Source of the DNA: Mesotaenium endlicherianum
Taxonomy: Eukaryota
Direction of reading: 5' to 3'
DNA: 64,000 bases
NCBI GenBank assembly: GCA_009602735.1
Contig: WELA01003159.1
Span: 393,753-457,752 of the forward strand
The number at the start of each line of letters is the position of its first letter. Position 1 is the first letter of the stretch. The notes beneath the pieces are model-generated. The model was not told where the DNA came from and did no database searches. It saw only the letters and a list, made by a program, of their open reading frames with translations. The position numbers and the translations under genes are program-made. Below, piece after piece: positions 24,894 through 63,272 of the stretch.

Positions 24894-25260
24894 TACCTCG
24901 TTGCTTCATTTGGAGGAGGAGCTTTGGTTGGTGATGCTTGTTGGAGTGTAGAGAGAGTAGAGAGGAGAGTCAAGGATGATTATAAGTTGCCAAGGACAGC
25001 CATGAAGACGTTGATGCAAGCTAGCATCTCACTCTCTTGAAGCAGGGAAGAGATGGGAAGAGGGAGGTGCTCCAAGAAACGTTAACTTGGATGCAACCAG
25101 ATTTGTGGCCAAGCTGTCCCCTATGTCACTATACTGACACTTAGGGTTCACATAACTGTCCCTTTCTCGCTCTTCGCACACTAACTGTCATATATTATCC
25201 CCTCCAACTTAAATGGAGACACGACCTCCTGTCACCTTCTCGTGTCAACTGAAATGACTG

Positions 25261-28200
25261 TTAGGGAGGTGCACCAGCCGCCCGAAGGTGGAATCGTTTC
25301 AACGCCCCTTTGGCATTAGTCAAATGGTCTCTAAATTCCCAAGTGTCCCCAGAGGCATCGTAACCCTTCCATCGAATGAGGTACTTCATAACGTATTTAG
25401 ACGATCGACGGACCGAGCGCGCGTCTAAAATCTCCTCAACCTCATATTCCTCAGGGTCGCCGTCCCGGACAGCGGGGACCGGTCCCGATTGGACAGGTAA
25501 CCGACCTGTGAACAGTGTATACCCTTTGATATATGGTTCCAGGAAGGAGACATTAAGGACCGGGTGACCCTTGTATTCGGCTGACATGTTCAGTTTGTAA
25601 GCATTCTGACCGACACGACGCACCACCGAATATGGACCGACCCAAACAGGGCCAAGCTTTTTCTTGACCACACCAGGGAGGTACAGGTGCTGAGAATGCA
25701 GTTTGGCTAAATCGCCTTTAGAAAATGTCAGCTCCTGACGGTGTTGATTAGCATATTTTTGTTGGTTTTGTTGGGCTTTGTGCAGGTTTTGTTGGACTTT
25801 TGACAGGGTGTCGGCAAACTCCTGAGTTAACTGGAGGGAGATCGGATTGTCAATCCCTTCAGGGTGAGTTAAAGACTCGCCTAGCACATCTAGAGGGGAC
25901 TTAGGGACTCTACCCAGGCTGAGTTCAAAAGGAGTCTTGCCCGTTGACGCGTGCACCGCACTGTTGACCGCAAACTGAATTTGAGGCAACAGGTCATCCT
26001 AATTATCTTATTTTTGGTTAATATATGCTCTCAGCACCTTCTGCAGAACTCGGTTAGTTTTTTCAGTCTGCCCATTAGTCTGAGGGTGGTTAGCTGTGCT
26101 GAGCAGCTGTTTGACTCCCATTAACCCTAAACGCCAGAACTTAGAGGTAAATTTTGAGTCTCTGTCTGAGATGATATTAGAGGGAAGCCCGTGTTGGCAT
26201 ACTACATGGTTGTAGAACTGTCTCGCTGTTTCGAGTGCAGTCACTTTGACAATTGTGGGGATAAAAATGACCATTTTTGTCAGTTTATCCACGACTACCA
26301 GTATCAAATCATGCCCATTGGCAGTTCTTGGTAGTGTGACCACCCAGTCCAGGGATATAGTTTCCCAGCGTCCAGCTGGGATGGGGAGTGGTTGCAAGAG
26401 ACCTCCCGGAGGTGTGTGCCTAGACTTATTCTTTTGACACTGATCACAAGACTTTACATATTTCAAGACCTCCCGGGGCAACCCCTCCCAATGATAATGT
26501 TTTGCCAATTTGCCAACTGTATTGGTCTGCCCCAAATGCCCACCCAATAAACTGTCATGTGCTTGACTCAATAAAAGGGACCTTATTTCCAAGTTATTAG
26601 GAATGACCAGCTTCACCCTGCCTGAAGTGGTTTCAGTCACCCAGACCCCTCCCTTAACCTTATACCCGAGTGCAGTAGCACGACACACACCAGTAGTGGG
26701 GCTGGGCTCAAATGTTGGGTCAGAAAGGTAGGCTTTCCTAAGTTGTTCAAGGAAGGACTTTTTCACCTTTAGTGAAGTGAGTGCACACAGGACTTTGTCT
26801 ACAGCATGCTGACTAAAGTTTCTTTCTTGCAAGGCAGGTCTTCTAGAGAGTGCATCAGCAGGGTTCAACTTCCCTGGTTTGTAGTTGATCTGGACTTGGA
26901 ACTGCTCCATCATCTGGCTCCAGCGGTTCTCCCTCCTCGACAGCTTGGACTTCTTCTAAAGGTGAGTCAGAGCTAGATGATCTGTAATCACCTTAAAAGC
27001 TTTACCATGTAAGTATGCTCTCCACTGTTTGAGCACATGAATGATAGCAAGCAGCTCATTATCATGCACTGAGNATTATCATGCACGGAATAGTTAATTT
27101 CAACAGGGTTGAATTTCATAGACTCGTACAGCACAGGATGTCACTTCTGCCTTACCTTACCATCCTTTGTGGTTTTGTCAATAAGTTGCAACAAAATAGC
27201 ACCCATGGCAAAGTCAGAAGCATCAATAACCACCTGCACAGGTTTGCTGAGGTCATACATGGCTAGGACTGGGGCAGAACAAAGAGCATCTTTAAGGGTT
27301 TGGAAGGCAGCTTGCTGCTCTTCCCCCCACACATACCCTATGTCCTTCTTAGTAAGGTCAGTCAGTTTACTGGCCTTTGTAGAATAATTCTCAATAAATC
27401 TCCTACAGTAGTTAGCCAACCCGAGGAAGGATCTAACTTCAAAGACAAATTGTGGTACTGGCCAATCCCTTATGATCTGGACTTTCTTAGGATCCACACT
27501 AATGCCTTCTTTGCTGACAACGTGGCCTATGAGTTCAATACTTTCCTTGTAGAAATCACACTTGCTCATTTTAGCATACAACTGATTTCTTCTCAGAGTG
27601 TCCAAGACTGTCTTTAAGTGTTCAGCATGCTGAGCTTCATCTTTAGAGAAAATTAGAGTATCATCTAGGAAGACTTGCACAAACTTATCTAGGTAAGATC
27701 TGAAAATGTCATTCATAGCACCCATGAAGGTCGCAGGAGCATTAGTCAGTCCAAATGGCATCACATTAAATTCATAGTGTCCATAACGTGTGCGGAAGGC
27801 AAGCTTGTGTTCATCCCCCTCAGCAATTCTGATTTCATGATAACCACTTTTAAGATCTATCTTACTGAACACTTTAGCACCAGACAGGGTATCAAGCAAA
27901 TCCTCGATTCTGAATAAAGCATACTTGTTCTTTAATGTAATTCTGTTCAGGGCTCTATAGTCCACACACATCCGCATACTACAATCTTTTTTCTGACCAA
28001 AGAGGATGGGTGCGCCGTAAGATGATTTACTGGGGAAAATATAACCATTTTCCTCTAGCTCTGCAATATGTGTTTTCATAGACTCGTGCAACACAGGGTG
28101 CCACTCCTGCCGTACCTTACCATCCTTAGTGGTTTTGTCAGCACGCTGAACAAAATAGCACCCATGGCAAAGTCAGAGGCATCAGTAACCACCTGCACCG

Positions 28201-29947
28201 GTTTGCTGGGGTCATACACGGCTAGCACTGGGGCAGAACAAAGGGCATCTTTAAGGGTCTGGAAGGCAGCCTGCTGCTCTTCCCCCCACACATACCCGAT
28301 GTCTTTCTTAGTAAGGTCAGTCAGTTTACTGGCCTTTGTGGAATAATTCTCAATAAATCTCCTATAGTAGTTAGCCAATCCGAGGAAGGATCTAACTTCA
28401 GACACAGACTGTGGTACTGGCCAGTTCCTTATGGTCTGGACTTTCTTAGGATCCACACTGATGCCGTCTAAACTGACAACGTGGCCTAAGAATTCAATAC
28501 TTTTTTTAAAGAAATCACACTTGCTTATTTTAGCATATAAGTGATTTTTTCTCCAAGTGTCCAGGACTGTCTTTAAGTGTCCAGCGTGGTGAGCTTCATC
28601 TTTAGAGAAAATTAAAATATCATCCAAGAAAACTTGCACAAACTTATCCAAATAAGGCCTGAAAATGTCATTCATAGCACCCATAAAGGTAGCAGGAGCA
28701 TTAGTCAGTCCAAATGGCATCACGTTGAACTCATAGTGTCCATAACGTGTGCGGAAGGCAGTCTTGTGTTCATCCCCCTCAGCAATTCTGATTTGATGAT
28801 AACCACTCTTGAGATCTATCTTACTGAACACCTTAGCGCCAGACAGGGTATCAAGCAAGTCCTCGATTCTGGGTAAAGCATACTTATTCTTTACTGTAAT
28901 TCTGTTCAGGGTTCTGTAATCCACACACATCCGCATACTCCCATCCTTTTTCTTAACAAATAGGATGGGTGCGCCGTAAGGTGATTTACTGGGAGAAATA
29001 TAACCATTTTCCTCAAGCTCTGCAATATGTGTTTTCAACTCCTCGCTCTCCACATAAGACAAGCCATAAGTGCGCTGCCAGGGTGGCTGACTCCCAGGTA
29101 ATAAATCAATCCTATGATCTACTTCCCTCTTAGGGGGTACTCCTGGAGGCATATTACATACATCCGTGTACTGAGCAACAATTTATGCAGCAGTAGGGTG
29201 CTCCAGAGGGCTTACCTTTTTCTCCACCACTTTTTCAGGTTGAGGAGTTACCTCTCTTAGCAGCAGACGGTTCATTCTGTCTTCCTTCTGGTTCCAACTT
29301 TTGACGAACTCCATTGCATTCAGCAACTTGCATCCTTCTGGAAGCCTCTTCTTTTCCTTCATTTGCCATCCACACAGGACAAGAGGAAGAGCACTGGTGG
29401 GTGCCAAGTCAGTCTGCCCATCACTGGCTCCTCTCACTTTAACTGTACCTCTGCTCCAACACACTTCAGCTTGATGTCTATTAAGCCAGGACCTGCCTAG
29501 CACGAGATCATAAAAGCCAGTGTTGAGTACCTCAAATGTAAGCGTTTCAGTTAGAACTGCAATGCCAGAACCTAACTGGACCTCAATAGGCTTGGTTATA
29601 ACTCCTCCCGGGATACTTGAGGCATCTCCAAGGAATATTTTTCTATTCCCTTGGGTGACAGTAGGCAGCCTTAGCCGCTTAACTAAGTCCTTGTGGATAA
29701 AAGTATGTGACGCCCCTCCGTCAACAAATGCCCTCACCTTCCTACCTGCAATCATGCAATGCAGTAGGATAGGGGGGACTGTCTTTTCCTGACTTTCGCA
29801 TTGTTCTCCTGACGTAGCAAAGAAATGTTGGACATCAGGTGGAACAAGAGCATCCAGAGTGTGCACTCTCTGGACGTCTATATTGCTGATGGTCTCCTTT
29901 ATCTGGTTGTCAGGCATGCATAGTGAATCCAGTTCAGCAGGACCCAT
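25261..29947 (-). pseudogene. pol: Disrupted pol (PR-RT-RT-RNaseH-IN-chromodomain)
   Basis: [13 protein letters not shown] and FLDD occur twice; [13 protein letters not shown] integrase zinc finger, ISDRD core and chromodomain present; multiple stops and frameshifts. Confidence 0.95.
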
Positions 29948-29998
29948 AATACCTGCTACGAGGGCAGCTAGTGACGACTCACTATCTCTAGCATCCTC

Positions 29999-30040
29999 AC
30001 AGTCAGTAGACTGGATTACTGACTGTTGCTGTCTTTTAAA
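29999..30040 (-). promoter_or_regulatory. -1 programmed ribosomal frameshift signal (gag-pol)
   Basis: U UUA AAA in gag phase (30040-30034), 7-nt spacer, perfect 10-bp stem ACAGTCAGTA/TACTGACTGT with an 8-nt loop. The -1 frame reads FKRQQQSV...MGPAEL into pol. Confidence 0.8.
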
Positions 30041-31494
30041 GGCTGGTCTTTTCTCTCGACCTTAGGCAGGTGCTTGACCGGACACTGTTCTCTGTAGTGG
30101 CCTTTCTGCTGACAATGGTAGCAAGTAGATTTTGCTGAGGCTGGTCTCGGCTTAGTCCTACCACCACCCCTTCCATAGCCACCTCGAGAGGGACCACCTC
30201 TACCTCTAGACTGAATAGCATTGTACTCATACTCATATTCATCACCCTGATTATCCTCAGCCTGGTCTCCTTCAACTGCATTGTAGGAACCGTGGGGCTT
30301 TTTGACAATCTTAGACACCAAAGCGTTACTCTGGCGCTTGTGATTGAACTGCTGCTGATCCCAGGCGTCAGCATCCTGGATCAAGTCAGCCAGTTTCTCA
30401 TACTTTTTCTCAGCAAAATGACCAGAGACCTCGGATTTCAAGCCATACCTGAAGTATGCTATCCTATACCGTTCTGGCAAATCAGGCTGCTTCATCATGT
30501 TCTCTTGGAACTTTTGAGCAAACTCAGCAACTGAAGTGGTCTGCTTCAGTGTCAGGGAGATCATCGCATAGATAGCTTTCTCCTGCTGGTTGATGACATC
30601 AAACTTCTCATGCAACTTCTCGACAAACTCTACCCACGTAGGGTCACCGAGTTGCCGAGCCTTACGCTCTTCCTTCCAGTAAAGCCACCAGTCTGCGGCA
30701 CTGCCTTTCAGTAGCGCACCGGTGTGCCTGACCTTCTCGTAATCTTGCAGTTCTGGGTAGTTCTCCAGCCACTGCTCAACATCCGCGAGAAACTTGATCA
30801 GGTAATATTTTCTGTTTCCCTCAGGATCATAGTCCTGGGGAGGTTTCGGCTTGGGCTTACTAGGCCCTCGGCCACCACCACTAGTGGTGTGAGACCCCAG
30901 TTGGTCTCTGTCCCGGAGTAGGGACATTATGATTCTTTTGTCCTCCTGCTGGGACTGATACATGGTCGCCATTTGCGACTGCATCTGAACGAACAATGCT
31001 CCCAAGTCTACATTTTGGGGTGGTAGATTAGCAAATGCAGCAGCAGCATTGGCATCTACTCGCTGAGTAGTGTCCTCAACAATCCCTCTTGCTCCTGCAG
31101 CAGCAATTCCTGCCGCATTCAGCCGGTCACGTATTTGACCTAGGGGTACATTGAGTTGTACGGCAGGAGGTGGGTTCAGAACATTGGCCCTTGATGCCAT
31201 AAGTTCTTCAACAGTGCGCTCGTCAGCTGGCTGTCCTTCCCTCCTTTGTATATCTTCAGCGGCCTTTGCTACTTGTTCAGCTTCTAGTCTGGCTATCTCC
31301 TCCTCAGCTTGCTGAGCTGCGACTGAGGCAATAGCAGCTGCCTCATCTGCAGCCTCCCTAGCTGCAGTATCCGCTACTGCTTCCGAATAGGTACGGTTTC
31401 CCGCTACATGGCTTTCCGCCTGGTTTTCGACATTCTCGTTATCCTGGTTCTCCATGTCTCGGGAGTTGCTAGTTTGAGACCTTGTCCTTACCAT
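30016..31494 (-). CDS. gag: Gag polyprotein, 492 aa, intact
   Basis: Retrotransposon capsid-like region (LKGSAADWW...LKQTTSVAEFAQKF), RGG stretch and CCHC knuckle CYHCQQKGHYREQC. Confidence 0.95.
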   Translation of the reverse strand: MVRTRSQTSNSRDMENQDNENVENQAESHVAGNRTYSEAVADTAAREAADEAAAIASVAAQQAEEEIARLEAEQVAKAAEDIQRREGQPADERTVEELMASRANVLNPPPAVQLNVPLGQIRDRLNAAGIAAAGARGIVEDTTQRVDANAAAAFANLPPQNVDLGALFVQMQSQMATMYQSQQEDKRIIMSLLRDRDQLGSHTTSGGGRGPSKPKPKPPQDYDPEGNRKYYLIKFLADVEQWLENYPELQDYEKVRHTGALLKGSAADWWLYWKEERKARQLGDPTWVEFVEKLHEKFDVINQQEKAIYAMISLTLKQTTSVAEFAQKFQENMMKQPDLPERYRIAYFRYGLKSEVSGHFAEKKYEKLADLIQDADAWDQQQFNHKRQSNALVSKIVKKPHGSYNAVEGDQAEDNQGDEYEYEYNAIQSRGRGGPSRGGYGRGGGRTKPRPASAKSTCYHCQQKGHYREQCPVKHLPKVERKDQPLKDSNSQ

Positions 31495-31515
31495 ACAAAG
31501 AAGACTGTGATAACT

Positions 31516-31527
31516 GCTCCGATACCA
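31516..31527 (-). other. Primer-binding site for initiator tRNA-Met
   Basis: TGGTATCGGAGC, 1 nt after the LTR end. Confidence 0.9.
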
Positions 31528-31528
31528 C

Positions 31529-32273
31529 TGAAATGAATCGACTTACCAAATAGGCGATTAACAATTAATAAAGATCTTTATATCAGCAAGTAATCTTTAT
31601 GGTATTTCCGTTAACTAGTTAAACGGCAAAGGACAATACACTAGCAGGGAATAATACTCGTAAGTCAAATGCGAGTAAACTAGCATCAATGATGCAAATC
31701 AGTAAACTCATACATAAGCAAGGTTAGAAGACAGTGCGTATCAATGGCTTCTCGCCTTGGATTCAGATCTCTCTCAGTAAGCTGTACAAGAGAGTTGGCC
31801 TCGTTTCCGAATGCCGAACTCGAGAGCAATGCCTAGCATATGTACATGGAATGAGTTTACTGTTCAACGGTCAGTGCGATGGCACCGCCTACCCGGGAGT
31901 TAACCACGTTGGTAGGACCTCGGTTAACCAAATCCACCGCCATCTCCCATCATCCCGAATAGCCATCCATCATAGGGATGTCATCTGGCCATTCATCTAG
32001 CATATCGCACTTAGATGCATATCAAGGCAGTTCGCTGCTACCGAGTACGGAAGTCAGCTGGCTGTCAAAGAATGTGTCAGCAAGCTGACTTAAGTTGACT
32101 TCAGCCTGCTGCTTTTGGCCGAGTCATTAAACTGATAATTATGTAAAGTCCAGCAGACTGATTATTAACTAAAGTTCAGCAGACTGACTACTAACTAAAG
32201 TTCAGCAGGCTGAACTAAATTAACTATTATATTTAAATGAATATTATATCTACTAATATACTGATTCATTACA
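31529..32273 (-). repeat. Family-A LTR (745 bp) shared by elements 1 and 2
   Basis: TGTAATGAATC...GATTCATTTCA termini, PPT-like AAGTTGGAGGGAT on one side and PBS on the other. Homologous to 15710-16428, 39624-40328 and 60758-61475. Confidence 0.95.
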
Positions 32274-32386
32274 ATCCCTCCAACTTAACTTGTTGTCGCC
32301 TCGACAACATTAAACTGCAAAAGCTTTAAATAAAGAAACTGACCCTGACCAGCCTCCCTTACTGACTATCTTTTCAGCCTGTCACC

Positions 32387-34063
32387 TTAAGGGGTGGTTC
32401 CTGGGGCTTCAGGATCAGGGGACGGAGATCTGGACCTAGATCTGGACAGCCCTCTAGGTCTGTCAGCTGGCCTTCTAAAGAACCCGGTTTGCTCTAAAGT
32501 TGGACCTCGAGGAGAACGAAGGATGGTAGCCTGCTCTTCAACCACTTGGGTGTTGATGCCCACATAGACAGGCATTCCAGTAGGATGCTGAAATACATTG
32601 GCTAGAGGTACATGCCCCTGAGCGGAGGGGGAGGCTGGCATACCTCTGGCCCACCCGCGTGTCCCTCTTCTGGCACCCCTGTCCTCTGGGGATTTCTGTC
32701 TGTGTCTGCTGCCCAGTACAGTCAGATCAGCTTCTTCCCCTGCTTGGGCAGGTGGGCTGGGGGAGCGAGCGCGGGGTCCAGTTGTCGCCATAACGGGGAT
32801 CACATTCCACACACCTGATCGTGGTTCTTTAGGAAGTGCCACTGCCTGTCCCTGGGTATCCTGAGTACCTGCTGCTGATGCTTCTCCTCTGCCTTGTTCT
32901 TCTTCCTCATCCTCCTCATCCTCCTCCTCGGAGAGAGTAGGGGTCTCGTCCACTAAGTCGTCCTGCTCCCTAGTAGACATGGAGTAGTCTACCGACCTCC
33001 CTTTCTTAGGGCGCGCTGGAGGTTGCTTGGCCTTCAGCCTACTGATATCTATCCGGCCTGCATTCTTTGCCCATTTGACAAAGGCATGCTTTCCCTTAGA
33101 GAAGTAGTCTCTTCCCCTCCTCCTATGTTCCTTGGTCTCTGCATTCATATTGCTCAGGCATCCATTCAGCCTGGGGTCCCAAGGGGCAATGTGAGGTGGT
33201 AGGATGAGATAGCCGTCTAGGCCATAGTGGAAGTCATCCGGTTGGGCTCGGTCACACTCCTGCTTCTTATTTGTGACGGTCATCCACCTCCAGTCTGTTG
33301 GCTGCTGGTAGTACTGGGGTCCGTGCTCAGCCTTCCTCAGTTTACACGGGAACCAGTGGGGAGAGAACATCTGCTGTCCTGCTTCCCTGGCCAAGTACTC
33401 CCAGCTCCTTCTCTCAACTTCATTGTAAGCTGGCAGGAGTGTGAGGTAGAATACCGTATCCTTAAAGCTATCGGGCCGCATGCTCACCATCCGGATGAGT
33501 CTCTGATCTCCCACTATTCCCGGTATGGGGACCGGCTTGTCCTCTGAATCATCTGCGAGATACCGGGCCTGCTCTGCTGTATAGCCCACCATCTTAGCAT
33601 AATCTTCGTAAAGGACCACGCCGGTGTGTGTCTCGATGTACCTGTCCAGTGCTGTAGCTCCTTCCTTCTGTAGCAGTGTTGTCTGTTCCAGCCTGTTGAT
33701 CTCCTGGGCTGCCAGCAATGCTTCCTTCAGGTTATCGAAGTTTTGGCCACCCACCACAGTATACCTGTAAGTGGCCAAGCTCTTCTGTCTGTCCGCTTCA
33801 ATCTTTTTTCTTTTCTCCTCTTCTGCCGCTGCCGCTTCTTCTTGCTGTTTCTTCTGTCTCTCCTCCTCAGCCTTCCTGAGGTTTTCCGCTTCCTGATCCT
33901 TCTTCCTCTGTGCCTCTTCTGCCGCCTCTTGTTGTTTGCGGACCCTTTCTTGTTCTCTCCTGGTGAGGGACGTCGCCGCCAGCTCCTTCTGGTATTGCTC
34001 CATTGTCCTCCTGGCTTCTTCTGCCTTGCGCTTTCTGTCCTCCTTTTGTGTGGTGGGCGCCAT
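32387..34063 (-). CDS. Extra retrotransposon ORF3 of unknown function (558 aa from ATG 34063): coiled coil, aromatic-rich central domain, acidic/disordered tail with RS repeat
   Basis: Long intact ORF between pol and the 3' LTR; second intact copy at 61596-63272 with mainly synonymous differences. Confidence 0.85.
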   Translation of the reverse strand: MAPTTQKEDRKRKAEEARRTMEQYQKELAATSLTRREQERVRKQQEAAEEAQRKKDQEAENLRKAEEERQKKQQEEAAAAEEEKRKKIEADRQKSLATYRYTVVGGQNFDNLKEALLAAQEINRLEQTTLLQKEGATALDRYIETHTGVVLYEDYAKMVGYTAEQARYLADDSEDKPVPIPGIVGDQRLIRMVSMRPDSFKDTVFYLTLLPAYNEVERRSWEYLAREAGQQMFSPHWFPCKLRKAEHGPQYYQQPTDWRWMTVTNKKQECDRAQPDDFHYGLDGYLILPPHIAPWDPRLNGCLSNMNAETKEHRRRGRDYFSKGKHAFVKWAKNAGRIDISRLKAKQPPARPKKGRSVDYSMSTREQDDLVDETPTLSEEEDEEDEEEEQGRGEASAAGTQDTQGQAVALPKEPRSGVWNVIPVMATTGPRARSPSPPAQAGEEADLTVLGSRHRQKSPEDRGARRGTRGWARGMPASPSAQGHVPLANVFQHPTGMPVYVGINTQVVEEQATILRSPRGPTLEQTGFFRRPADRPRGLSRSRSRSPSPDPEAPGTTP

Positions 34064-34330
34064 CCTGCACATGTAACCAGGGCACAAGTTAGTAGGATAT
34101 GGACCTTTGTCATAGGGATTGCAGGAAGTATGTTAGTATTTAGTATAGTGGCTTCGCTGCTGTTTACCTTACAGGATGATTGCTAAAAGTTGACGTAGTT
34201 GCGATGCGCTACACATAAACGTATGAGTGTGTTTTTATCGCTCTCGCTCACTAACTGTCATATATTTTCCCCTCCAACTTAAATGGAGACAGGACCGCCT
34301 GTCACCTTCCCGTGTCAACTGAAATGACAG

Positions 34331-37300
34331 TTATGGAGGGACTCCAGCGGCCCGAAGGTGGAACCGTGTCAACGCCCCTTTGGCATTGGTCAAGTGGTCC
34401 TTAAACTCCCAAGTGTCCCCAGAGGCATCGTAACCCTTCCATCGAATGAGGTATTTCATGACATATTTAGACGATCGACGGACCGAGCGAGCGTCTAAAA
34501 TCTCATCGACCTCATATTCCTCAGGGTCGCCGTCCCGGACAGCGGGGACCGGTCCCGGTTGGACAGGGAACCGACCTGTGAACAGTGTATCACCTTTGAT
34601 GTACGGTTCCAGGAAGGAGACATTAAAGACCGGGTGCCCCTTGTATTCAGCTGACATGTTCAGTTTGTAAGCATTCTGACCGACACGACGGACCACCGAA
34701 TATGGACCGACCCAGACAGGGCCAAGCTTTTTCTTGACCACACCAGGGAGGTACAGGTGCTGAGAATGCAGTTTGACTAAATCCCCCTTGGAAAATGTCA
34801 GTTCCCGACGGTGTTGATTAGCGTATTTTTGTTGGTTTTCTTGGGCCGTGTGCAAGTTTCGTTGGACTTCTGACAGGGTGTCAGCAAACTCCTGAGTTAA
34901 CTGGAGGGAGACCGGGTTGTCAATCCCTTCAGGGTGAGTTAAAGATTCCCCTAGCACATCTAGAGGAGACTTAGGGACTCTACCCAGGCTGAGTTCAAAA
35001 GGAGTTTTGCCCGTTGACGCGTGCACCGCACTGTTGACCGCAAACTGAATTTGAGGCAACAGGTCATCCCAATTATCTTGTTTTTGGTTAATATATGCTC
35101 TCAGCACCTCCTGCAGAACTCGGTTAGTTCTTTCAGTCTGCCCATCAGTCTGAGGGTGGTTTGCTGTGCTGAGCAGCTGTTTGACTCCCATTAACCCCAT
35201 TAAAGCTCTCCAGAACTTAGAGGTGAATTTTGAGTCTCTGTCTGAGATGATATTAGAAGGGAGCCCATGTTGGCATACTACATGGTTGTAAAACTGTCTC
35301 GCTGTTTCGAGTGCAGTCACTTTGACAGTTGTGGGGATAAAAATGACCATTTTTGTCAGTTTATCCACGACTACCAGTATTGAATCATGCCCGTTGGCAG
35401 TTCTTGGTAGTGAGACCACCCAGTCCATGGATATAGTTTCCCAGCGTCCCGCTGGGATGGGTAGCGGTTGCAAGAGACCTCCGGGTGGTGTGTGCCGAGA
35501 CTTATTTCTCTGACACTGGTCACAGGACTTGACATATTTCAAGACCTCCCGGGGTAACCCCTCCCAATGATAATGTTTTGCCAGTTTGCCAACAGTTTTG
35601 GCCTGCCCCAAATGTCCACCCAGGAGACTGTCATGAGCTTGACTCAGTAAGAGAGACCTTATTTCCAAATTATTAGGAATGACCAGCTTCAGCCTGCCTG
35701 AAGTGGTTTCAGTCACCCAGACCCCTCCCTTGAGCTTATACCCGAGTGCGGTAGCACGACACATACCAGTAGTGGGGCTGGGCTCAAATGTTGGGTCAGA
35801 AAGGTAGGCTTTCCTAAGTTGTTCAAGGAAGGACTTTTTCACCTTTAGTGAAGTGAGTGCACACAGGACTTTATCTACAGCATGCTGACTAAAGTTCCTT
35901 TCTTGCAAGTCAGGTCTTCTAGAGAGTGCATCAGCAGGATTCAACTTCCCTGGTTTGTAGTCGATCTGGACTTGGAACTGCTCCAGCATCTGGCTCCAGC
36001 GGTTCTCCCTCCTCGACAGCTTGGACTTCTTCTGAAAGTGGGTCAGAGCTAGATGATCTGTAATCACCTTAAAAGCTTTACCATGTAAGTATGCTCTCCA
36101 CTGTTTGAGTACATGAATGATAGCTAGCAGCTCTTTATCATGCACTGAGTAATTAATCTCCGCTGGATTAAATTTCATAGACTCATACAACACAGGATGC
36201 CACTCCTGCCGTACCTTACCATCCTTTGTGGTTTTGTCAGCAGGCTGCAACAAAATAGCACCCATGGCAAAATCAGAGGCATCAGTAACCACCTGCACCG
36301 GTTTGCTGGGGTCATACACGGCTAGCACTGGGGCAGAACAAAGGGCATCTTTAAGGGTCTGGAAGGCAGCCTGCTGCTCTTCCCCCCACACATACCCGAT
36401 GTCTTTCTTAGTAAGGTCAGTCAGTTTACTGGCCTTTGTGGAATAATTCTCAATAAATCTCCTATAGTAGTTAGCCAACCCGAGGAAGGATCTAACTTCA
36501 GAGACAGACTGTGGTACTGGCCAGTCCCTTATGGTCTGGACTTTCTTAGGATCCACACTGATGCCCTCTTTACTGACAACGTGGCCTAAGAATTCAATAC
36601 TTTCCTTAAAGAAATCACACTTGCTCATTTTAGCATACAAGTGATTTTTCCGCAGAGTGTCCAGCACTTTCTTTAAGTGTTCAGTGTGCTGAGCTTCATC
36701 TTTAGAGAAAATTAAAATATCATCCAGGAAAACTTGCACAAACTTATCCAAATAAGGTCTGAAAATGTCATTCATAGCACCCATAAAGGTAGCAGGAGCA
36801 TTAGTCAGTCCAAATGGCATCACGTTGAACTCATAGTGTCCATAACGTGTGCGGAAAGCAGTCTTGTGTTCATCCCCCTCAGCAATTCTGATTTGATGAT
36901 AACCACTCTTGAGATCTATCTTACTGAACACCTTAGCGCCAGACAGGGTATCAAGCAAGTCCTCGATTCTGGGTAAAGCATACTTGTTCTTTACTGTAAT
37001 TCTGTTCAGGGCTCTGTAATCCACACACATCCGCATACTGCCATCCTTTTTCTTAACAAATAGGATAGGTGCGCCGTACGGTGATTTACTGGGAGAAATG
37101 TAACCATTTTCCTCCAGCTCTGCAATCTGTGTTTTCAACTCCTCACTCTCCAAATAAGACAAGCCATACGTGCGTTGCCAGGGTGGCTGGCTACCAGGTA
37201 ATAAATCAATCCTATGATCTACTTCCCGCTTAGGGGGTAGTCCTGGAGGCATATTAAACACATCCGTGTACTGAGCAACAATGTTTGCAGCAGTAGGGTG

Positions 37301-37897
37301 TTCCGGAGGGTGTACCTTTTTCTCAACCACTTCTTCAGGTTGAGGAGGTACCTCTCTTAGCAGCAGACAGAACATTCTGTCTTCCTTCTGGTTCCAGCTT
37401 TTGACGAACTCCATTGCATTCAGCAACTTGCATCCTTCTGGAAGCCTCTTCTTTTCCTTCATTTGCCATCCACACAGGACAAGAGGAAGAGCACTGGTGG
37501 GTGCCAAGTCAGTCTGCCCATCACTGGCTCCTCTCACTTTAACTGTACCTCTGCTCCGACACACTTCAGCTTGATGTCTATTAAGCCAGGACTTGCCTAG
37601 CACGAGATTATAAAAGCCAGTGTTGAGTACCTCAAATGTAGGCGTTTCAGTTAGAACTGCAATGCCATAACCTAACTGGACCTCAATAGGCTTGGTTATA
37701 ACTCCTCCCGGGATACTTGAGGCATCTCCAAGGAATATTTTCCTAATCCCTTGGGTGACAGTAGGCAGCCTTAGCCGCTTAAGTAAGTCCTTATGGATAA
37801 AAGTATGTGACGCCCCTCCGTCAACAAATGCCCTCACCTTCCTACCTGCAATCATGCAATGCAGTAGGATAGGGGGGACTTTTCCTGACTTTCGCAT
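34331..37897 (-). CDS. pol: Pol polyprotein: protease, RT, RNase H, integrase, chromodomain
   Basis: [24 protein letters not shown]35E core (SMDWV, ISDRD, QTER), GPY motif, and YEVDEILD...YLIRWKGY...DTWE. A 4-bp deletion at about 37880 disconnects it from the gag-pol frameshift. Confidence 0.95.
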
Positions 37898-38111
37898 TGT
37901 TCTCCTGACTTAGCAAAGAAATGTTGGACATGAGGTGGAACAAGAGCATCCAGAATGTGCACTCTCTGGATGTCTATATTGCTGATGGTCTCCTTTATCT
38001 GGTTGTCAGGCATGCAGAGTGAATCCAATTCAGCAGGACCCATAATACCTGCTACGAGGGCAGCTAGTGACGACTCACTATCTCTAGCATCCTCACAGTG
38101 AGTAGACTGGA

Positions 38112-39589
38112 TTATTGACTGTTGCTGTCTTTTAAAGGCTGGTCTTTTCTCTCAACCTTTGGGAGGTGCTTGGCTGGACACTGCTCTCTGAAGTGACTCG
38201 TCTGCTGGCAATGGAAGCAAACAGATATTGGTGAGGCTGGTCTCGGCTTAGTCCTACCACCACCTCTTCCATAGCCGCCTCGAAAGAAACCACCTCTACC
38301 TTTAGACTGTATAGCATTATACTCATACTTATATTCATCACCCTGATCATCCTCAGCCTGGTCTCCTCCAATTGCATTGTAGGAACCGTGGGGCTTTTTG
38401 ACAATCTTAGACACCAAAGCATTACTCTAGCGCTTGTGATTGAACTGCTGCTGATCCCAGGCATCAGCATCTTGGATCAAGTAAGCCAGTTTTTCATACT
38501 TCTTCTCAGCCAAATAACCCGAGACTTCGGATCTCAAGCCATACCTGAAGTATGCTATCCTATACCGTTCTGGCAAGTCTGGCTGTTTCATCACGTTCTC
38601 CTGGAACTTTTGAGCAAACTCAGCAACTGCAGTGGTCTGCTTCAGTGTCAAGGAGATCATCGCATAGATAGCTTTCTCTTGCTGGTTGATGACATCAAAC
38701 TTCTCATGCAACTTCTCGACAAACTCTACCCACGTAGGGTCACCGAGTTGCTGAGATTTAAGCTCTTCTTTCCAGTAAAGCCACCAGTCTGCGGCACTGC
38801 CTTTCAGTAGGGCACCGGTGTGCCTGACCTTCTTGTAATCTTGCAGTTCTGGGTAGTTCTCCAGCCACTGCTCAACATCCGCGAGAAACTTGATCAGGTA
38901 ATATTTTCTGTTTCCCTCAGGATCATATTCCTGGGGAGGTTTCGGCTTGGGCTTACTAGGCCCTCGGCCACCACCACTAGTGGTGTGAGACCCCAGTTGG
39001 TCTCTGTCCCGGAGTAGGGACATTATGATTCTTTTGTCCTCCTGTTGGGACTGATACATGGTCGCCATTTGCGACTGGATCTGAACGAACAATGCTCCCA
39101 AGTCTACACTCTGGGGTGGTAGATTAGCAAATGCAGCAGCAGCATTGGCCTCTACTTGCTGAGTAGTGTCCTCAACAGTTCCTCTCGCTCCTGCAGCAGC
39201 AATTCCTGCCGCATTCAGCCGGTCACGTATTTGACCTAGGGGTTCATTGAGTTGTACAACAGGAGGTGGGTTCAGAAAATTGGCCCTTGATGCCATCAGT
39301 TCCTTGACAGTGCGCTCGTCAGCTGGCTGTCTTTCCTCCTTTCTGTATCTTCAGCGGCCTTTGCTACTTGTTCAGCTTCTAGCCTGGCTCTCTCCTCCTC
39401 AGCTTGCTGTGCTGCGACTGCGGCAATAGCAGCTGCCTCATCTGCAGCCTCCCTAGCTGCAGTATCTGCTACTGCTTCAAAATAGGTACGGGGTCCCGCT
39501 ACACAACTTTTTGCCTGGTTTTTGACATTCTCGTTATCCTGGTTCTCCATGTCTCGAGAGTTGCTAGTTTGAGACCTTGTCTCTACCAT
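38112..39589 (-). pseudogene. gag: Disrupted gag of element 2
   Basis: Colinear with gag 30016-31494 but split by a frameshift near 39335 and a TAG at 38427. Confidence 0.92.
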
Positions 39590-39623
39590 ACAAAGAAGAC
39601 TGTGATAAATAATACGATACCAC

Positions 39624-40328
39624 TGAAATGAATCGACTTACCACATATGCGGTTAACATTTAATGAAGATCTATATATCAGCAAATAATATCTATGGTAT
39701 TTTGCGTTAATTGGTTAAACGGCAAAGGACAACTCTAAAGCAGGGAATAATACTCGTAAGTCAAATGCGAGTACACTAGCATCAATAATGCAATCAGTAA
39801 ACTCACACATAAGCAAGGTTAGAAAACAGTGCGTATCAATGGCTTCTCGCCTTGGATTCAGATCTCTCTCAGTAAGCTGTACAAGAGAGTTGGCCTCGTT
39901 TCCGAATGCCGAACTCGAGAGCAATCCTAGCATATGTACATGGAATGAGTTTACTGTTCAACGGCCAGTGCAATGGCACCGCCTACCCGGGAGTTAACCA
40001 CGTTGGTAGGACCTCGGTTAACCAAATCCACCGCCATCTCCCATCATCTCGAATCGCCATCCATCCTAGGGATGTCATCTGGCCATTCATCTAGCATACC
40101 ACACTTAGATGCATATCGAGGCAGCTCGCTGCTACCGAGTACGGAAGTCAGTTGGCTGTCAAAGAATGTGTCAGCAAGCTGACTTAAGTTGACTTCAGCC
40201 TGCTGCTTCCGGCTGAGTCTTTAAACTGATATTTAATATGAAGTCCAGCAGACTGATTATTAACTAGAGTTCAGCAGGCTATTATATTTAAATGAATGTT
40301 ATATCTACCAATATACTGATTCATTACA
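39624..40328 (-). repeat. 5' LTR of element 2 (705 bp, diverged)
   Basis: Same termini and body as the other family-A LTRs, with a deletion in the AT-rich end. Confidence 0.93.
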
Positions 40329-43300
40329 CCAGAGCTTTCGCAGCTCGCTTTCCCAAGATTACTGTCTGTGCGCTAGTGTCCAATCGGATATTGGGAGCGG
40401 CCCAATTGTTGAACGTCAAAACTCTATCCTTGTTCTGCACTCTCACAGTGCTGAAATTAGTAGGCAGCGAAGCGCTGTTCGCGCCTTCCTCAGCTAGGTC
40501 CAGCTGCTGTCCGGCTTCTTCAACCGTGAAAGGATACGTAAGACGCAGATCTGCGAGTGAAAGACAAGGAATGTGCTGAATCCGGTGTTCCACCAGATCC
40601 TTCAGCTTCTCCAGCGAAAAACTAAATGTCTTGCGTGGCTCAGGCTTGGCTTGTCGTAGCTGCGCAATCTCGTTCTCATCGAGAGTGATCCGAAAGGTTT
40701 GAGGAAGCTTCCCAGCATTCCTTGGAACCAGATGGTCATGATCTGCGCGCTCCGCAGCCGTTGCAGCCACGGCCTCCTCAGGCGTCAGCTTCTCGCCTTT
40801 GCAGACGGTCTTTTTGGCCAAACCTGCATCATAATAGACATTAGGCACATTTAGTTTTGAAAATTGAGCTCTGCAATCTCTGCACTCATAGCATCATACT
40901 TCTGGTTACCATTTCGGTTACCTGAATTATCTTTCTCCTTTTTCTTACCCTTATCTGCCTCTTTCGTGGCAGCATTAGCCCATGGTGGCTTCAGATTTGG
41001 GTTCTTCGACCAACACTCATCTTCTGAGTGTCCCTTTGCTTCAATGTGCGCATACCTGCGCCTTGATAGCAGACAATTGCTTAGCATCCGGGTACGGACA
41101 ATCTCTCTTCTGATGTCTCGATTTCCCGCAATTCCAACAACCCTATGCTGTCTCAACAGTGTTGGCGTGCTTATTAAACCTATTGAAAGACCCGCTCTTC
41201 TTCTTAAACTGTGCATTAGAGTAATTATTCCACCTTTCTCTCAAGAGCCATAAGCGTCCTGGAAGCCTCTTTGTACCAGACTTTACCTTCCTCGACATTG
41301 CGTGCTATTTCAGCAGCCTTGTCGATGTTCCAGTCAATTCCGCGTCTCGCAGATTGGTGCGGCCTGACCTCCCGATCTGTGCCTTGACCCAAACACAATA
41401 AGAATTTGTCAGCCACAATCCTAGGCTCATAGATTCCTGCCTTCTTGGCAAGGTCTACCAATCTAGATTTGACCTCCATCACTGTCTCGTTCGTTTGACG
41501 GACAAAATGCACATAACGGTGCACCTTAAGACTGCGATCCTCTGGGAATTTTCCTTCAAGCAACTTAAAGAAACCACGCAGACAGTGCTCAGAGTCTAAC
41601 CGGTCATTCCCAGCCTCCATATCCTTACGACAACTAGCCAATGCTTGCGCATGGCTTGCTTCCGTGGTGGCACCATCACCATGCTGCCCTGTAAAAGGTG
41701 CAGCCCTGCGCGTTACTCGTTCCTGAGCATTAGCAATCTTTTCAGACAATTCTGCACACACTTTACGTAATTCAGCGACAGACCCAGCATCATCATCTCG
41801 AGTAGCCGCTCGTTGCTGACCCTCGGTGAGTTGCCTCATGGCATCTGTTAATTCTTGTGTTAGTGCAGCTAAGTCTACGCTCTCAACAGGTGCAACAGGT
41901 ATTGCTCTTCCTGATGACAAAGCGGACAGGCGGACTTTTGCAGCCTCTTTCTGGATTTTTAAATCCCTCGCCTTCTTTTGCTCGTCAAACGCCCATTCCT
42001 GGGTAAGGTTCTCATCCTTCCGGAATTGGCGATAAAGCAACAAGGCATCTTTGTCCAAGTACTGAACCAAGCTTATAAAAGCGACTGACTGAATGTAAGA
42101 AGAATCTTTTCGAATTCTCTCAAAGAAATCAGCCCAATAGATCTCATCAAACTCTTCGAAAGTGAGACTATTTCCACCGATTCGTCCACTAAAACACTTT
42201 GTAGACAGCTTGAACTTAGGATTTTCATCCTTATCATCACCAGTCATTTCGAATGGTGACCAAGACTCACTGACTTTACCCCACAGGTCGTGCTCTCTGC
42301 CCAAATTGGGTACAAAGGCTTGCACGTTATACGGATTCTCACTGTTCGTGGCAGTATGGCGAGACTCGTCTCCCGACGGTTGCTCACTCCACAGGTTATC
42401 CGTGCGCTCAGATGTCTCACTTCCTTCTGGACTTTGGCTTGAATCAGAACCTTCCGCAGGCTCCACACGGTAGTAAAGTCTTCCACTCCTCAACCGCATG
42501 TACAGTTGAATTTCTCCGGGTCCCCTTCCATGTTGAGCACCGGCAGCCCTCACAGGCCTCAATTCCCAATTTGCTTGGGATTTTCTATTCACCTGAATCA
42601 CAGAACCGAAGTTCTTAGAAGTAGGACGTAAGTCTCTTACTTCCACATAGGCTTTATGCCTTAAGGTTCTTGGGTTCACAGGTGAGCAAATTGTAGTTTG
42701 CAGAAATCACACTCTAAGCAGCTTGACATACAACGTCAGATTCAGAGAAATCGCCCTTCAGGCTTTTGCTTAACTTTCACAAAGTCGCAGCTTACAAAAC
42801 TCTGAAACTACACGTCTATGCTGGCCTGGGTCAAGCTCTTTACTTAACACCGCACCTTAACAGCTCTTCGCTGCCAGGCTAGGCTCACTCAGTTCTTCAC
42901 TGAGAGCTTTATCTGCCAATACTACCCTCTCTCTTCGAGATGCGAATGCGACTTCTGAGAACTTGGAAACTAACACACAACTCACCATTTTAAGGCTGCT
43001 TCACACACACTTGTGGCGTTCGACCGAATCTGTGCTAATCTCCTAGCAGATTCTATTCTGCAGTTCTCCTACTTTCAACAATGAGATTCCCTGTTGGGAA
43101 CTCCTACAACCCTAACTTATCTATGATACACTGAGAAGAATCTTTAGCATCGGCAGAAGCGTGGGGCCTCGGCTCTCCAATGGCCTTGGGAACTCCTCCT
43201 TTTTCTTCGCGCCCTTCTTCTCTGACCTTCTGCTCCTTCTGCTCCTTCTGCTTCTTGGCAAAAGTGCGTGAGAGAGAATGACATGTCTCAGGCAAGATTC

Positions 43301-59700: not shown

Positions 59701-61595
59701 TGTAACAGTGGCCGTCGGCGGACGCTAGGCATCGACACCCCTAATCTACACAAGTGCGGAAATAGCATGGACTTGCTAACCTAAGTGCTGTGGATAAAAA
59801 CTCCCCCTATTAGGGGGAAAAGCCCACAGCTTATGAGATGTAAATGAAAAAGAATACGAGAGGTCTGAACTTGGCACCACTGGGCAACTGAGCAGCTACA
59901 AAGTACTAACTAGAGAGCAAAAAATGAGCTATGAAAACCTCGTAAACAAGCTATGGCGGAGTAGTACCACCTAGAGCGTGAGTGCACGAACCCACTATGT
60001 TGAGCAAACTACTAGTGGAAAGCTATGTTATGGCCGCGAGAAAGAATGGGGTGTTCGCGACTAAATGTGAGGGGTGATGAACACTACGAGCGACCTACAC
60101 ATAGAAGTGAGAAAAACAAGAGTGGATAAGCACACACTACGAGCATTTAGTCACATAGAACAAATATAATCTCACTCATAAGAACGAACATACAAAACTA
60201 ACACCGAAATGGTGTTAGCTCGCGGCCTAGGTAGCACGCTCTCGAATGCTATGCCCAGTGCATACGAAAACTCGCCAAACTCTAAACTCTACGATGAACG
60301 CGTCATCGCGTCATCTCACATAAATCCACAATAAACTAAATTTGGAAAAGAAAAGAATCTAGTGGTCGACACACACACGTACAACTCAATGACTATGGCC
60401 AAAAGGGAACCCGGCACCCCAATGTCCCCTACTCTCCCTAACCCCTAGCAATCTTTGGGCATACCCATGGGGATTGCCAATGGTACAGTGATGATCTAGC
60501 CATGGACCATGGGGGATCCCCCAAGGTACTCGCGCCGACCCTTCAGGCGAGCGAACCTGAGAGTCGACCTCCACACATGTGGGCGGCAACACCATGTGTA
60601 GAGGTAAAGAGAGTGCGCGTGATCTGGGAAGGGCCTCACAGTTGCTCAAAAGCAGAACCTCGTGAGCAGATCCTGGGTCCCAGGGTTCACCACCAGGGCA
60701 CATAGACTAGACCATCCTCACCTACCGCCCTAACCCAACTAACCAATAGAGCCCGCATGAAATGAATCGACTTACCAAATAAGCGATTAACAATTAATAA
60801 AGATCTTTATATCAGCAAGTAATCTTATGGTATTTCCGTTAACTAGTTAAACGGCAAAGGACAATACACTAGCAGGGGATAATACTCGTAAGTCAAATGC
60901 GAGTAAACTAGCATCAATGATGCAAATCAGTAAACTCATATATAAGCAAGGTTAGAAGACAGTGCGTATCAATGGCTTTTCGCCTTGGATTCAGAGTTCT
61001 CTCAGTAAGCTGTACAAGAGAGTTGGCCTCGTTTCCGAATGCCGAACTCGAGAGCAATGCCTAGCATATGTACATGGGATGAGTTTACTGTTCAACGGTC
61101 AGTGCGATGGCACCGCCTACCCGGGAGTTAACCACGTTGGTAGGACCTCGGTTAACCAAATCCACCGCCATCTCCCATCATCCCGAATAGCCATCCATCA
61201 TAGGGATGTCATCTGGCCATTCATCTAGCATACCACACTTAGATGCATATCGAGGCAGTTCGCTGCTACCGAGTACGGAAGTCAGCTGGCTGTCAAAGAA
61301 TGTGTCAGCAAGCTGACTTAAGTTGACTTCAGCCTGCTGCTTCCGGCTGAGTCATTAAACTGATATTAATGTAAAGTCCAGCAGACTGACTATTAACTAA
61401 AGTTCAGCAGGCTGAACTTAATTAACTATTTATATTTAAATGAATATCATATCCACTAATATACTGATCATTACANNNNNNNNNNNNNNNNNNNNNNNNN
61501 NNNNNNNNNNNNNNNNNNNNNNNNNNNNNNNNNNNNNNNNNNNNCTGACCCTGACCAGCCTCCCCTACNACGGACTGTCTTTTCAGCCTGTCACC

Positions 61596-63272
61596 TTAAG
61601 GGGTTGTTCCTGGGGCTTCAGGGTCAGGAGACGGAGATCTGGACCTAGATCTGAACAGCCCTCTAGGTCTGTCAGCTGGCCTTGTAAAAAACCCTGTTTG
61701 CTCTAAAGTTGGCCCTCGAGGAGAACGGAGGATGGTGGCCTGCTCTTCAACTATTTGGGTGTTGATTCCCACATAGACAGGCATTCCAGTAGGATGCTGA
61801 AATACATTGGCTAGAGGTACATGCCCCTGAGCGGAGGGGGAGGCTGGCATACCTCTGGCCCACCCGCGTGTCCCTCTTCTGGCACCCCTGTCCTCTGGGG
61901 ATTTCTGTCTGTGTCTGCTGCCCAGTACCGTCAGATCAGCTTCTTCCCCTGCTTGGGCAGGTGGGCTGGGGGAGCGAGCGCGGGGTCCAGTTGTCGCCAT
62001 AACGGGGATCACATTCCACACACCTGATCGTGGTTCTTTAGGAAGTGCCACTGCCTGTCCCTGGGTATCCTGAGTACCTGCTGCTGATGCTTCTCCTCTG
62101 CCTTGTTCTTCTTCCTCATCCTCCTCATCCTCCTCCTCGGAGAGAGTAGGGGTCTCGTCCACTAAGTCGTCCTGCTCCCTAGTAGACATGGAGTAGTCTA
62201 CCGACCTCCCTTTCTTAGGGCGCGCTGGAGGTTGCTTGGCCTTCAGCCTACTGATATCTATCCGGCCTGCATTCTTTGCCCATTTGACAAAGGCATGCTT
62301 TCCCTTAGAGAAGTACTCTCTTCCCCTCCTCCTATGTTCCTTGGTCTCTGCATTCATATTGCTCAGGCATCCATTCAGCCTGGGGTCCCAAGGGGCAATG
62401 TGAGGTGGTAGGATGAGATAGCCGTCTAGGCCATAGTGGAAGTCATCCGGTTGGGCTCGGTCACACTCCTGCTTCTTATTTGTGACGGTCATCCACCTCC
62501 AGTCTGTTGGCTGCTGGTAGTACTGGGGTCCGTGCTCAGCCTTCCTCAGTTTACACGGGAACCAGTGGGGAGAGAACATCTGCTGTCCTGCTTCCCTGGC
62601 CAAGTACTCCCAGCTCCTTCTCTCAACTTCATTGTAAGCTGGCAGGAGTGTGAGGTAGAATACCGTATCCTTAAAGCTATCGGGCCGCATGCTCACCATC
62701 CGGATGAGTCTCTGATCTCCCACTATTCCCGGTATGGGGACCGGCTTGTCCTCTGAATCATCTGCGAGATACCGGGCCTGCTCTGCTGTATAGCCCACCA
62801 TCTTAGCATAATCTTCGTAAAGGACCACGCCGGTGTGTGTCTCGATGTACCTGTCCAGTGCTGTAGCTCCTTCCTTCTGTAGCAGTGTTGTCTGTTCCAG
62901 CCTGTTGATCTCCTGGGCTGCCAGCAATGCTTCCTTCAGGTTATCGAAGTTTTGGCCACCCACCACAGTATACCTGTAAGTGGCCAAGCTCTTCTGTCTG
63001 TCCGCTTCAATCTTTTTTCTTTTCTCCTCTTCTGCCGCTGCCGCTTCTTCTTGCTGTTTCTTCTGTCTCTCCTCCTCAGCCTTCCTGAGGTTTTCCGCTT
63101 CCTGATCCTTCTTCCTCTGTGCCTCTTCTGCCGCCTCTTGTTGCTTGCGGACCCTTTCTTGTTCTCTCCTGGTGAGGGACGTCGCCGCCAGCTCCTTCTG
63201 GTATTGCTCCATTGTCCTCCTGGCTTCTTCTGCCTTGCGCTTTCTGTCCTCCTTTTGTGTGGTGGGCGCCAT
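61596..63272 (-). CDS. Second intact copy of ORF3
   Basis: Same length as 32387-34063, 4 amino-acid differences. Confidence 0.85.
   Translation of the reverse strand: MAPTTQKEDRKRKAEEARRTMEQYQKELAATSLTRREQERVRKQQEAAEEAQRKKDQEAENLRKAEEERQKKQQEEAAAAEEEKRKKIEADRQKSLATYRYTVVGGQNFDNLKEALLAAQEINRLEQTTLLQKEGATALDRYIETHTGVVLYEDYAKMVGYTAEQARYLADDSEDKPVPIPGIVGDQRLIRMVSMRPDSFKDTVFYLTLLPAYNEVERRSWEYLAREAGQQMFSPHWFPCKLRKAEHGPQYYQQPTDWRWMTVTNKKQECDRAQPDDFHYGLDGYLILPPHIAPWDPRLNGCLSNMNAETKEHRRRGREYFSKGKHAFVKWAKNAGRIDISRLKAKQPPARPKKGRSVDYSMSTREQDDLVDETPTLSEEEDEEDEEEEQGRGEASAAGTQDTQGQAVALPKEPRSGVWNVIPVMATTGPRARSPSPPAQAGEEADLTVLGSRHRQKSPEDRGARRGTRGWARGMPASPSAQGHVPLANVFQHPTGMPVYVGINTQIVEEQATILRSPRGPTLEQTGFFTRPADRPRGLFRSRSRSPSPDPEAPGTTP

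Follow-up and report, generated by a model that had tools for sequence, protein, structure and literature searches.

In the window (the whole 64,000-nt stretch of Mesotaenium endlicherianum DNA analysed in this study) we identified a chromovirus carrying a third gene, designated ORF3, between pol and the 3′ LTR. Its 558-codon reading frame is intact and under purifying selection, and the encoded protein contains no transmembrane stretch and has no detectable homolog. ORF3 is almost certainly a real orphan accessory gene on which selection acts. The best explanation of its role, to which we assign a probability of roughly 0.36, is that its mRNA is produced by splicing and its product is a soluble protein of the nucleus, which counters host silencing of the element's own chromatin.

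Location of ORF3 and structure of the element

ORF3 (32387..34063; ATG at 34063) is encoded by the minus strand, in the sense orientation relative to pol. A second copy, also of 558 aa, is present at 61596..63272 (minus strand; ATG at 63272), and its product differs from that of copy 1 at 4 aa positions. The initial annotation had placed both ORFs at the env position, between the pol stop and the 3′ LTR, where they were indeed found; it gave no strand, which is minus for both copies, the plus-strand frames containing 9-25 stops. Across ORF3, the remaining five frames contain 9-30 stops each. A spacer of 267 nt separates the pol stop from the ORF3 ATG (an upstream in-frame ATG at 34072 would extend the protein to 561 aa), and the gene ends approximately 100 nt ahead of a polypurine tract (PPT) and a TG...CA LTR. 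As a sense ORF of at least 250 codons between pol and the 3′ LTR, ORF3 occupies the position of the extra ORFs classified as aORF-3S or eORF-3′F.

The pol gene (34331..37909, minus strand) forms a frame of 1188 aa, in which Pfam analysis recognized protease, RT, RNase H, integrase, SH3-like and chromodomain regions; the chromodomain (PF00385; E 1.9e-8) is located at aa 1128-1180, at the integrase C-terminus. The PR-RT-RH-INT order of the domains and the presence of TG...CA LTRs, a PBS and a PPT are those of chromoviruses, and the ORF3-bearing element is a Ty3/gypsy chromovirus. Its components (unit 1, minus strand) are arranged in the order LTR (39624..40328), PBS, broken gag, pol, ORF3, LTR (31529..32273). 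The 5′ LTR (705 nt, TG...CA) is 94% identical to the 3′ LTR (745 nt, TG...CA), which doubles as the 5′ LTR of the next tandem unit. The PBS (39615..39622; a fuller copy starts at 31527) begins with TGGTATCG, which we take to be of tRNA-Met type. The gag gene (38112..39589) is broken by one frameshift and one premature stop. There are two PPTs: the first (34268..34282, minus strand), located right after pol, has 13 nt, TTAAGTTGGAGGG, in common with the 3′ PPT (32275..32288, minus strand), which adjoins the LTR.

Tandem unit 2 (25163..31527, minus strand) contains a PBS, an intact sister gag (30016-31494), a broken pol, the first PPT and a different 3′ sequence, without ORF3. Its alignment with unit 1 ends at 25163, approximately 100 nt past the pol stop; beyond this point, as judged by eye, comes an unrelated repeat resembling an LTR (~24318-25139). 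The ends of this repeat are of the TGTCA/TGACA type, no target duplication was matched to it, and it cuts unit 2 off after the first PPT (also by eye). The RT region of unit 2 (27114-29037) carries an internal duplication of ~960 nt. ORF3 is present at two of the three pol 3′ ends within the window; the one without it belongs to the third unit bearing this pol (25261-31494), which appears to be truncated by another repeat.

Comparison of the window with itself revealed four LTRs, 90-97% alike, among them the 3′ LTR of ORF3 copy 2 (60758..61475, minus strand). The assembly contains N gaps, one of which (61476-61544) adjoins ORF3 copy 2 and separates it from this LTR, so that repeats may have been collapsed. 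The flanks available, those of tandem and truncated units, do not match as a target-site duplication.

The gag and pol frames overlap by 46 nt in a -1 relation. Within this overlap there is a T TTA AAA heptamer (30034-30040 and 38130-38136, minus strand), followed after ~9 nt by a predicted hairpin, which contains the gag stop; the two probably constitute a -1 ribosomal frameshift signal. The region 41225-42706 (minus strand) contains a gag-like ORF of 424 aa, for which no Pfam match was obtained; it belongs to another element, and unit 1 appears to have inserted downstream of it.

Position among the chromoviruses

Inspection by eye of the pol tail showed that the chromodomain retains the Y/W/Y aromatic cage, which places it in group I and not in the Tekay-type group II. 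The latter is defined by the lack of the cage (PMC3350952), and, according to PMC6317226, caged chromodomains are confined, among plant chromoviruses, to those of algae and non-seed plants. In a FastTree phylogeny of the RT-RH region, angiosperm sequences form a clade (support 0.998) to which the element does not belong; the RT of Tekay groups with seed-plant elements. Its neighbours are environmental sequences, and it lies near Closterium hits, with weak support. The tree comprises 81 of 120 hits (39 short or gappy ones were dropped), contains no reference-classified elements and has weak deep support. On the sequence evidence, a non-seed host of the green lineage is likely.

The element matches neither Chlamyvir nor Tcn1 on all traits, although it shares the group I chromodomain with both. 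The presumed Met-type PBS is a feature of 41% of Chlamyvir elements (PMC6317226 Additional file 5), but gag and pol are split by a single stop in 80% of this clade and overlap by 46 nt here. Overlapping gag and pol frames occur in 60% of Tcn1 elements (PMC6317226 Additional file 5), but 83% of Tcn1 are self-priming, with no tRNA PBS. No extra ORFs are listed in either clade.

Some other sequences were recognized in the window. A host gene encoding an RWP-RK domain (PF02042; E 4.6e-18) is located among the retroelements at 52861-53469 (plus strand), within a GC-rich region (48000-54000). Fragments of a C-5 cytosine DNA methylase (18176-19182, minus strand; E 1.7e-5) and of a hAT dimerisation domain (16699-17124, plus strand; E 9e-4) are possibly the remains of a decayed methylase-carrying transposon.

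Features of the ORF3 protein

The N-terminal region of the predicted protein (aa 7-95) is highly charged, with 82% E/K/R/Q/A and only 7 large hydrophobic residues in 89. It was initially annotated as a coiled coil; no heptad pattern was found, and the region looks instead like a charged single alpha-helix, since it contains 51 i+3/i+4 salt-bridge pairs versus 28 expected, a number reached in 0 of 20000 shuffles. The next region (aa 96-345) forms the aromatic-rich core noted previously, with 29 F/W/Y residues, and is followed by a basic patch (KKGR, aa 353), an acidic tract (14 D/E of 25 residues, aa 371-395), which likewise agrees with the earlier description, and a Pro/Arg-rich tail (aa 396-558) with RG repeats (aa 462-473) and an RS/SP run (aa 540-549). 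The SRSRSRSPSP sequence ascribed to the tail is present in copy 1, but copy 2 reads FRSRSRSPSP.

In agreement with the initial annotation, neither a transmembrane helix (the highest 19-residue Kyte-Doolittle mean is 0.73, by hydropathy) nor a signal peptide was found, the N-terminus being charged on inspection of the sequence. ORF3 contains 0 N-glycosylation sequons. Given the lack of a transmembrane stretch, the protein is not env-like. The motifs RKRK (aa 10), KRKK (aa 84) and KKGR could, by their pattern, act as nuclear signals, and it is reasonably likely that the protein is nuclear.

Homology searches

ORF3 had been described as unassignable to any family, and every homology search that we performed was in line with this. 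In a collection of 5.8 billion proteins of similar length, 0 of 3773 candidates matched the core (aa 85-345), nor did any of 729 candidates among the shorter proteins of the same collection (longer proteins lay outside that search). A phmmer search of 1.84 billion representatives of all lengths gave 0 hits at E 0.001. In Pfam scans of ORF3 all matches stayed below threshold (Obc1_C, E 0.006, and Borrelia_P83, the latter to the charged helix), and PDB sequences gave just two, on the helix (E 0.24 and 0.75). Of the pattern matches in metagenome contigs 0 of 81 held up, as did 0 of 599 in viral contigs; tblastn on 80 chromovirus loci gave 0 hits and nothing was found in Rfam. The best matches in the ESM Atlas scored 0.85 and 0.91 and had 108-124 features in common; they concerned unrelated families and were at chance level. 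The possibility that ORF3 is a degenerate gag was rejected, the similarity to gag being E 1.1 and 2.2 only. Single-sequence AlphaFold2 predictions gave no confident fold (pLDDT 33.6 and 36.1). With homology negative throughout and folds of low confidence, the function of the core is not readable from similarity. We found no description of the element or of the protein in openly accessible papers (REXdb Additional files 1 and 3 were outside this scope). Additional genes in this position form a known category; the ORF3 protein, its lineage and the anatomy of the cassette in which it resides are new.

Extra ORFs in related elements

The initial annotation stated that chromoviruses normally encode only gag and pol. 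This proved too general: sense 3′ extra ORFs (eORF-3′F) occur in 18% of the 782 Tekay elements of REXdb, and eORF-5′F in 33% (PMC6317226 Additional file 5). For the other chromovirus clades of REXdb (Reina, Galadriel, CRM, Chlamyvir and Tcn1), no sense 3′ extra ORFs are listed (PMC6317226 Additional file 5). For fungal Gypsy elements, a figure legend in PMC2864245 also mentions an "additional ORF of unknown function".

We found further examples among 80 chromovirus-like metagenome loci, 31 of which extend at least 1.5 kb beyond the integrase. Eight of these 31 (L030, L049 at 5727-6926, L053, L059, L061, L067, L072 and L078) contain a sense ORF right after pol; since seven of the eight come from one assembly prefix, they represent about one family. 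Like ORF3, these conserved ORFs (315-423 aa; no Pfam hit in the two of eight that were scanned) directly follow a chromodomain-containing pol. They differ from it in sequence (profile score -2.6 bits) and in the location of the helical region, which is at the C-terminus of the metagenome protein.

The plant aORF-3S/eORF-3′F sequences resemble ORF3 in position, orientation, length (>250 codons) and lack of similarity to known proteins, but ORF3 has no transmembrane helix and contains NLS-like, acidic and RS motifs. It has no sequence link to described aORFs, and its host is a chromovirus with a group I chromodomain. The aORF of sunflower Tekay 13-2 is also encoded by a chromovirus, and its product is predicted (PMC11728184) to be nuclear, proline-rich and partly disordered, with long helices; this ORF precedes gag, whereas ORF3 follows pol. 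Moreover, the ORF3 element differs from Tekay in its intact aromatic cage and in its RT, placed outside the angiosperm clade.

Selection acting on ORF3

A dN/dS value near 1, with random disruption of most genomic copies, had been named in advance as evidence against the proposed accessory gene. The comparison of the two copies gave 0.118 (11.5 synonymous and 4.5 nonsynonymous changes), which indicates purifying selection and is similar to the values for the RH-INT part of pol (0.13-0.15). Further gag and pol comparisons within the window gave 0.16-0.30, and the protease 0.95. The copies differ in 15 codons, 4 of which are amino-acid changes. Thirteen of the 15 are located within codons 441-558, which carry most of the selection signal (dN/dS of the tail, 0.114), with 2 changes in codons 1-440 and 0 differences in the 267 nt of the spacer between pol and ORF3. 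This concentration points to a recombinant 3′ haplotype. Because codons 1-440 and the spacer are nearly identical and an N gap adjoins copy 2, the pair by itself says little about conservation, and the case for selection draws on the 3′ haplotype and on public contigs.

Among the matches listed in public sequencing data, the ORF3 stretch was found in 20 of 24 runs (74-89% of sampled words present), and the listed runs that hold it carry 5 organism labels and come from 7 studies. We inspected the best-supported 40 of 226 variant rows from four contig sets, a selection in which rare variants that disable dead copies are too sparsely represented. Twenty-six of the 40 lie inside ORF3, and 22 of these 26 are synonymous, compared with an expected 23-31% (p 3e-11 to 2e-8). 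Within the same best 40 rows, 12 of the 14 variants absent from copy 2 are synonymous (p 2e-5), as are 4 of the 5 that lie in the core; all 4 replacement variants are conservative, and the indels at a depth of at least 1% comprise 2 in the spacer and 0 in ORF3. Contigs from independent runs show 0-2 differences over 875-1475 nt of the ORF3 region, and those of a more diverged set (X4; ~82% identity) span the ORF3 core.

Splice signals and expression

We also inspected the sequence for signals that may permit expression of ORF3. A predicted donor (G/GTAAGT; 39636..39641, minus strand) is located 18 nt before the end of the LTR, upstream of the PBS. It occupies the same position in the LTRs at 31541-31546 and 60770-60775, and the fourth LTR contains GTAAGA; GGTAAGT, found in three of the four LTRs, has just one other copy in the window, both strands counted. 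A predicted acceptor (TGTGCAG/G; 34065..34071, minus strand) lies one base before the ATG at 34063 and is preceded by two TACTAAC branch-point motifs (34132-34138 and 34088-34094, minus strand). Four of the five minus-strand TACTAAC sequences of the window are located in the two ORF3 spacers, and the probability of two in a 267-nt spacer is 7e-4 (Markov resampling, with the motif picked post hoc). An alternative predicted donor (AG/GTAAAC; 34162..34167, minus strand) would give a 103-nt 5′ UTR intron.

According to the model that we favour, transcription would start in the 5′ LTR, and the GTAAGT donor would be joined to the acceptor at 34065. Such splicing would remove the PBS, gag and pol, and the ATG at 34063 would become the start codon, as in env mRNAs; the upstream ATG at 34072 would also be removed, which fits the 558-aa start. 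It is rather probable that the ORF3 mRNA is spliced to this acceptor.

RNA depth over 32616-34135, a segment that includes the first 1.45 kb of ORF3, was zero in three poly(A) runs that came from a single study and bore the same species label (6-12% of each was read), and no splice joint at ORF3 was seen; the last ORF3 bin had a depth of 0.05 in one of the three runs. The LTR and diverged pol copies did have reads in these runs. No RNA runs are among those listed for the ORF3 stretch. The ORF3 copy type thus seems silent in the sampled poly(A) runs. A 159-nt GT..AG joint on the plus strand within pol (36084-36244) was supported by 3 reads of run X23, and chimeric RNA reads enter the end of the LTR from unrelated flanks (31400-31700); this suggests antisense or host-driven transcripts of other copies.

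Origin of the ORF3 cassette

The 13-nt PPT core TTAAGTTGGAGGG and the 11-nt sequence AAGGTGACAGG occur in the window solely after the pol copies and after ORF3. Downstream of the first PPT, the segment 34248..34262 (minus strand) matches in 14 of 15 nt, as aligned by eye, the sequence following this PPT in sister contigs, and is likely, judging from this match, to be a relic of the first 15 nt of another LTR. In one contig from each of three sets (X1, X5 and X6), the first PPT is immediately followed by a sequence that begins with TGTG and differs from the ORF3 spacer (loose end at 34269), and in other contigs the sequence upstream of the 3′ PPT and LTR is another one (loose end at 32313). This arrangement suggests that ORF3 joined the element as a cassette, placed downstream of a 3′ end that already existed, of which the first PPT and the decayed beginning of an LTR would be the remnants; the direction of this change is deduced from the LTR relic and not from a tree. 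We infer that sister subfamilies lack the cassette or have something else in its place. Since sister elements seem to manage without it, the cassette is not essential for the pol lineage. The first PPT could serve as a second plus-strand primer.

Possible functions of ORF3

What the extra ORFs of plant LTR retrotransposons do is described as an open question in PMC7264820. The same source reports (i) splicing to a sense 3′ ORF in barley Bagy2, (ii) a nuclear location of the Grande gene23 protein, (iii) proposed Rev/Tat-like roles of aORFs, and (iv) proposed chaperone and plasmodesmata roles of plant env-like ORFs. PMC11728184 presents the products of Tekay 5′ aORFs as predicted nuclear proteins with long helices and disorder, and in PMC13547354 a helical oligomerisation region of VANC21 is paired with anti-silencing. 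VANC of the VANDAL DNA transposons is, like ORF3, a transposon-borne accessory protein with a helical region, but is MAIN-related and dicot-specific according to the same text; no PMD/MAIN-related domain was found in ORF3 in Pfam scans.

By analogy with Grande gene23, the Tekay 5′ aORFs and VANC21, ORF3 is likely to encode a nuclear helper protein, and self-protection from silencing is the leading one of the proposed mechanisms. The protein would enter the nucleus through its basic motifs, with the charged helix as a spacer and the core as a binding domain, and the acidic and RG/RS-containing tail would draw in host chromatin or RNA factors; these are the least secure steps of the proposal. 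By opposing silencing, ORF3 would keep the element expressed. Against this stand the broken gag of the ORF3-bearing unit 1 and the near absence of ORF3 RNA reads. In addition, neither a homolog nor a confident fold links the core to nucleic-acid binding.

Ranked next, and rather unlikely, is that the same gene and spliced mRNA yield a Rev-like protein, which would bind the genomic RNA in its unspliced form and promote its export or stability. The RG repeats and RS/SP run within the conserved tail are consistent with such a role, for which there is the precedent proposed in PMC7264820 (cited above), and the strong donor-acceptor pair means that the export of unspliced RNA needs solving. However, the RS run comprises few residues and is changed in copy 2, we detected no fold of an RNA-binding type, and an acidic tract is atypical for such factors.

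The AG/GTAAAC donor, 103 nt upstream of the acceptor, would serve a different arrangement, in which a regulatory ORF3 is transcribed from an internal promoter after pol, with a 5′ UTR intron (34167 to 34065), independently of the LTR as in Grande gene23. The AT-rich stretch after the first PPT fits this and the LTR relic could supply promoter sequence, but the LTR donor agrees better with the consensus and is retained in four LTR copies 90-97% alike, and from an internal promoter some reads might be expected, where essentially none were found. We regard this arrangement as decidedly unlikely.

It is quite improbable that ORF3 is a non-membrane counterpart of env, i.e. a cytoplasmic protein acting on the virus-like particle as a scaffold, condensate former or aid to cell-to-cell movement. 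The env position, the env-style splice signals, the suitability of a long rigid helix and a disordered tail for a scaffold, and the chaperone and plasmodesmata roles mentioned above for plant env-like ORFs (PMC7264820) speak for it, but the three basic NLS-like motifs, the lack of gag similarity (E 1.1) and the absence of any Pfam movement or capsid family speak against it.

Very improbable is the capture of a gene from the host or another mobile element, with conservation due to donor history or host benefit. The duplicated PPT and the LTR relic would fit read-through or a template switch, as would the coding region without an intron and the sister elements without ORF3; on the other hand, no searched library contains a host homolog, and the synonymous bias of element-linked variants shows that selection acted inside the element. 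Finally, the near-identity of the copies, the N gap beside copy 2 and the lack of RNA reads and homologs might suggest a non-functional ORF3 (a chance open frame or an artefact of repeat collapse), but this view is already largely refuted, to a nearly negligible probability, by the 558-codon frame among five stop-rich ones, the strong synonymous bias and the nearly identical contigs from independent runs.

Significance

Should ORF3 act against silencing or in RNA export, a chromovirus lineage for which REXdb lists no accessory regulator would have one, and the protein would represent a new family; should it do neither, ORF3 would be one more orphan aORF. ORF3 is intact, young and selected, its predicted splice points are exact and sister elements seemingly lack it, and so its expression, localisation and effect are directly testable. 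In the broadest reading, which we consider rather unlikely, an early-branching chromovirus of the green lineage would have arrived independently at the three-gene organisation of retroviruses; its third gene would encode a nuclear regulator of new fold, with an anti-silencing or Rev-like role, in place of an envelope, and would be carried in an exchangeable cassette flanked by the duplicated PPT modules. If this were true, the subfamilies with and without ORF3 would constitute a natural experiment on retrotransposon counter-defence.
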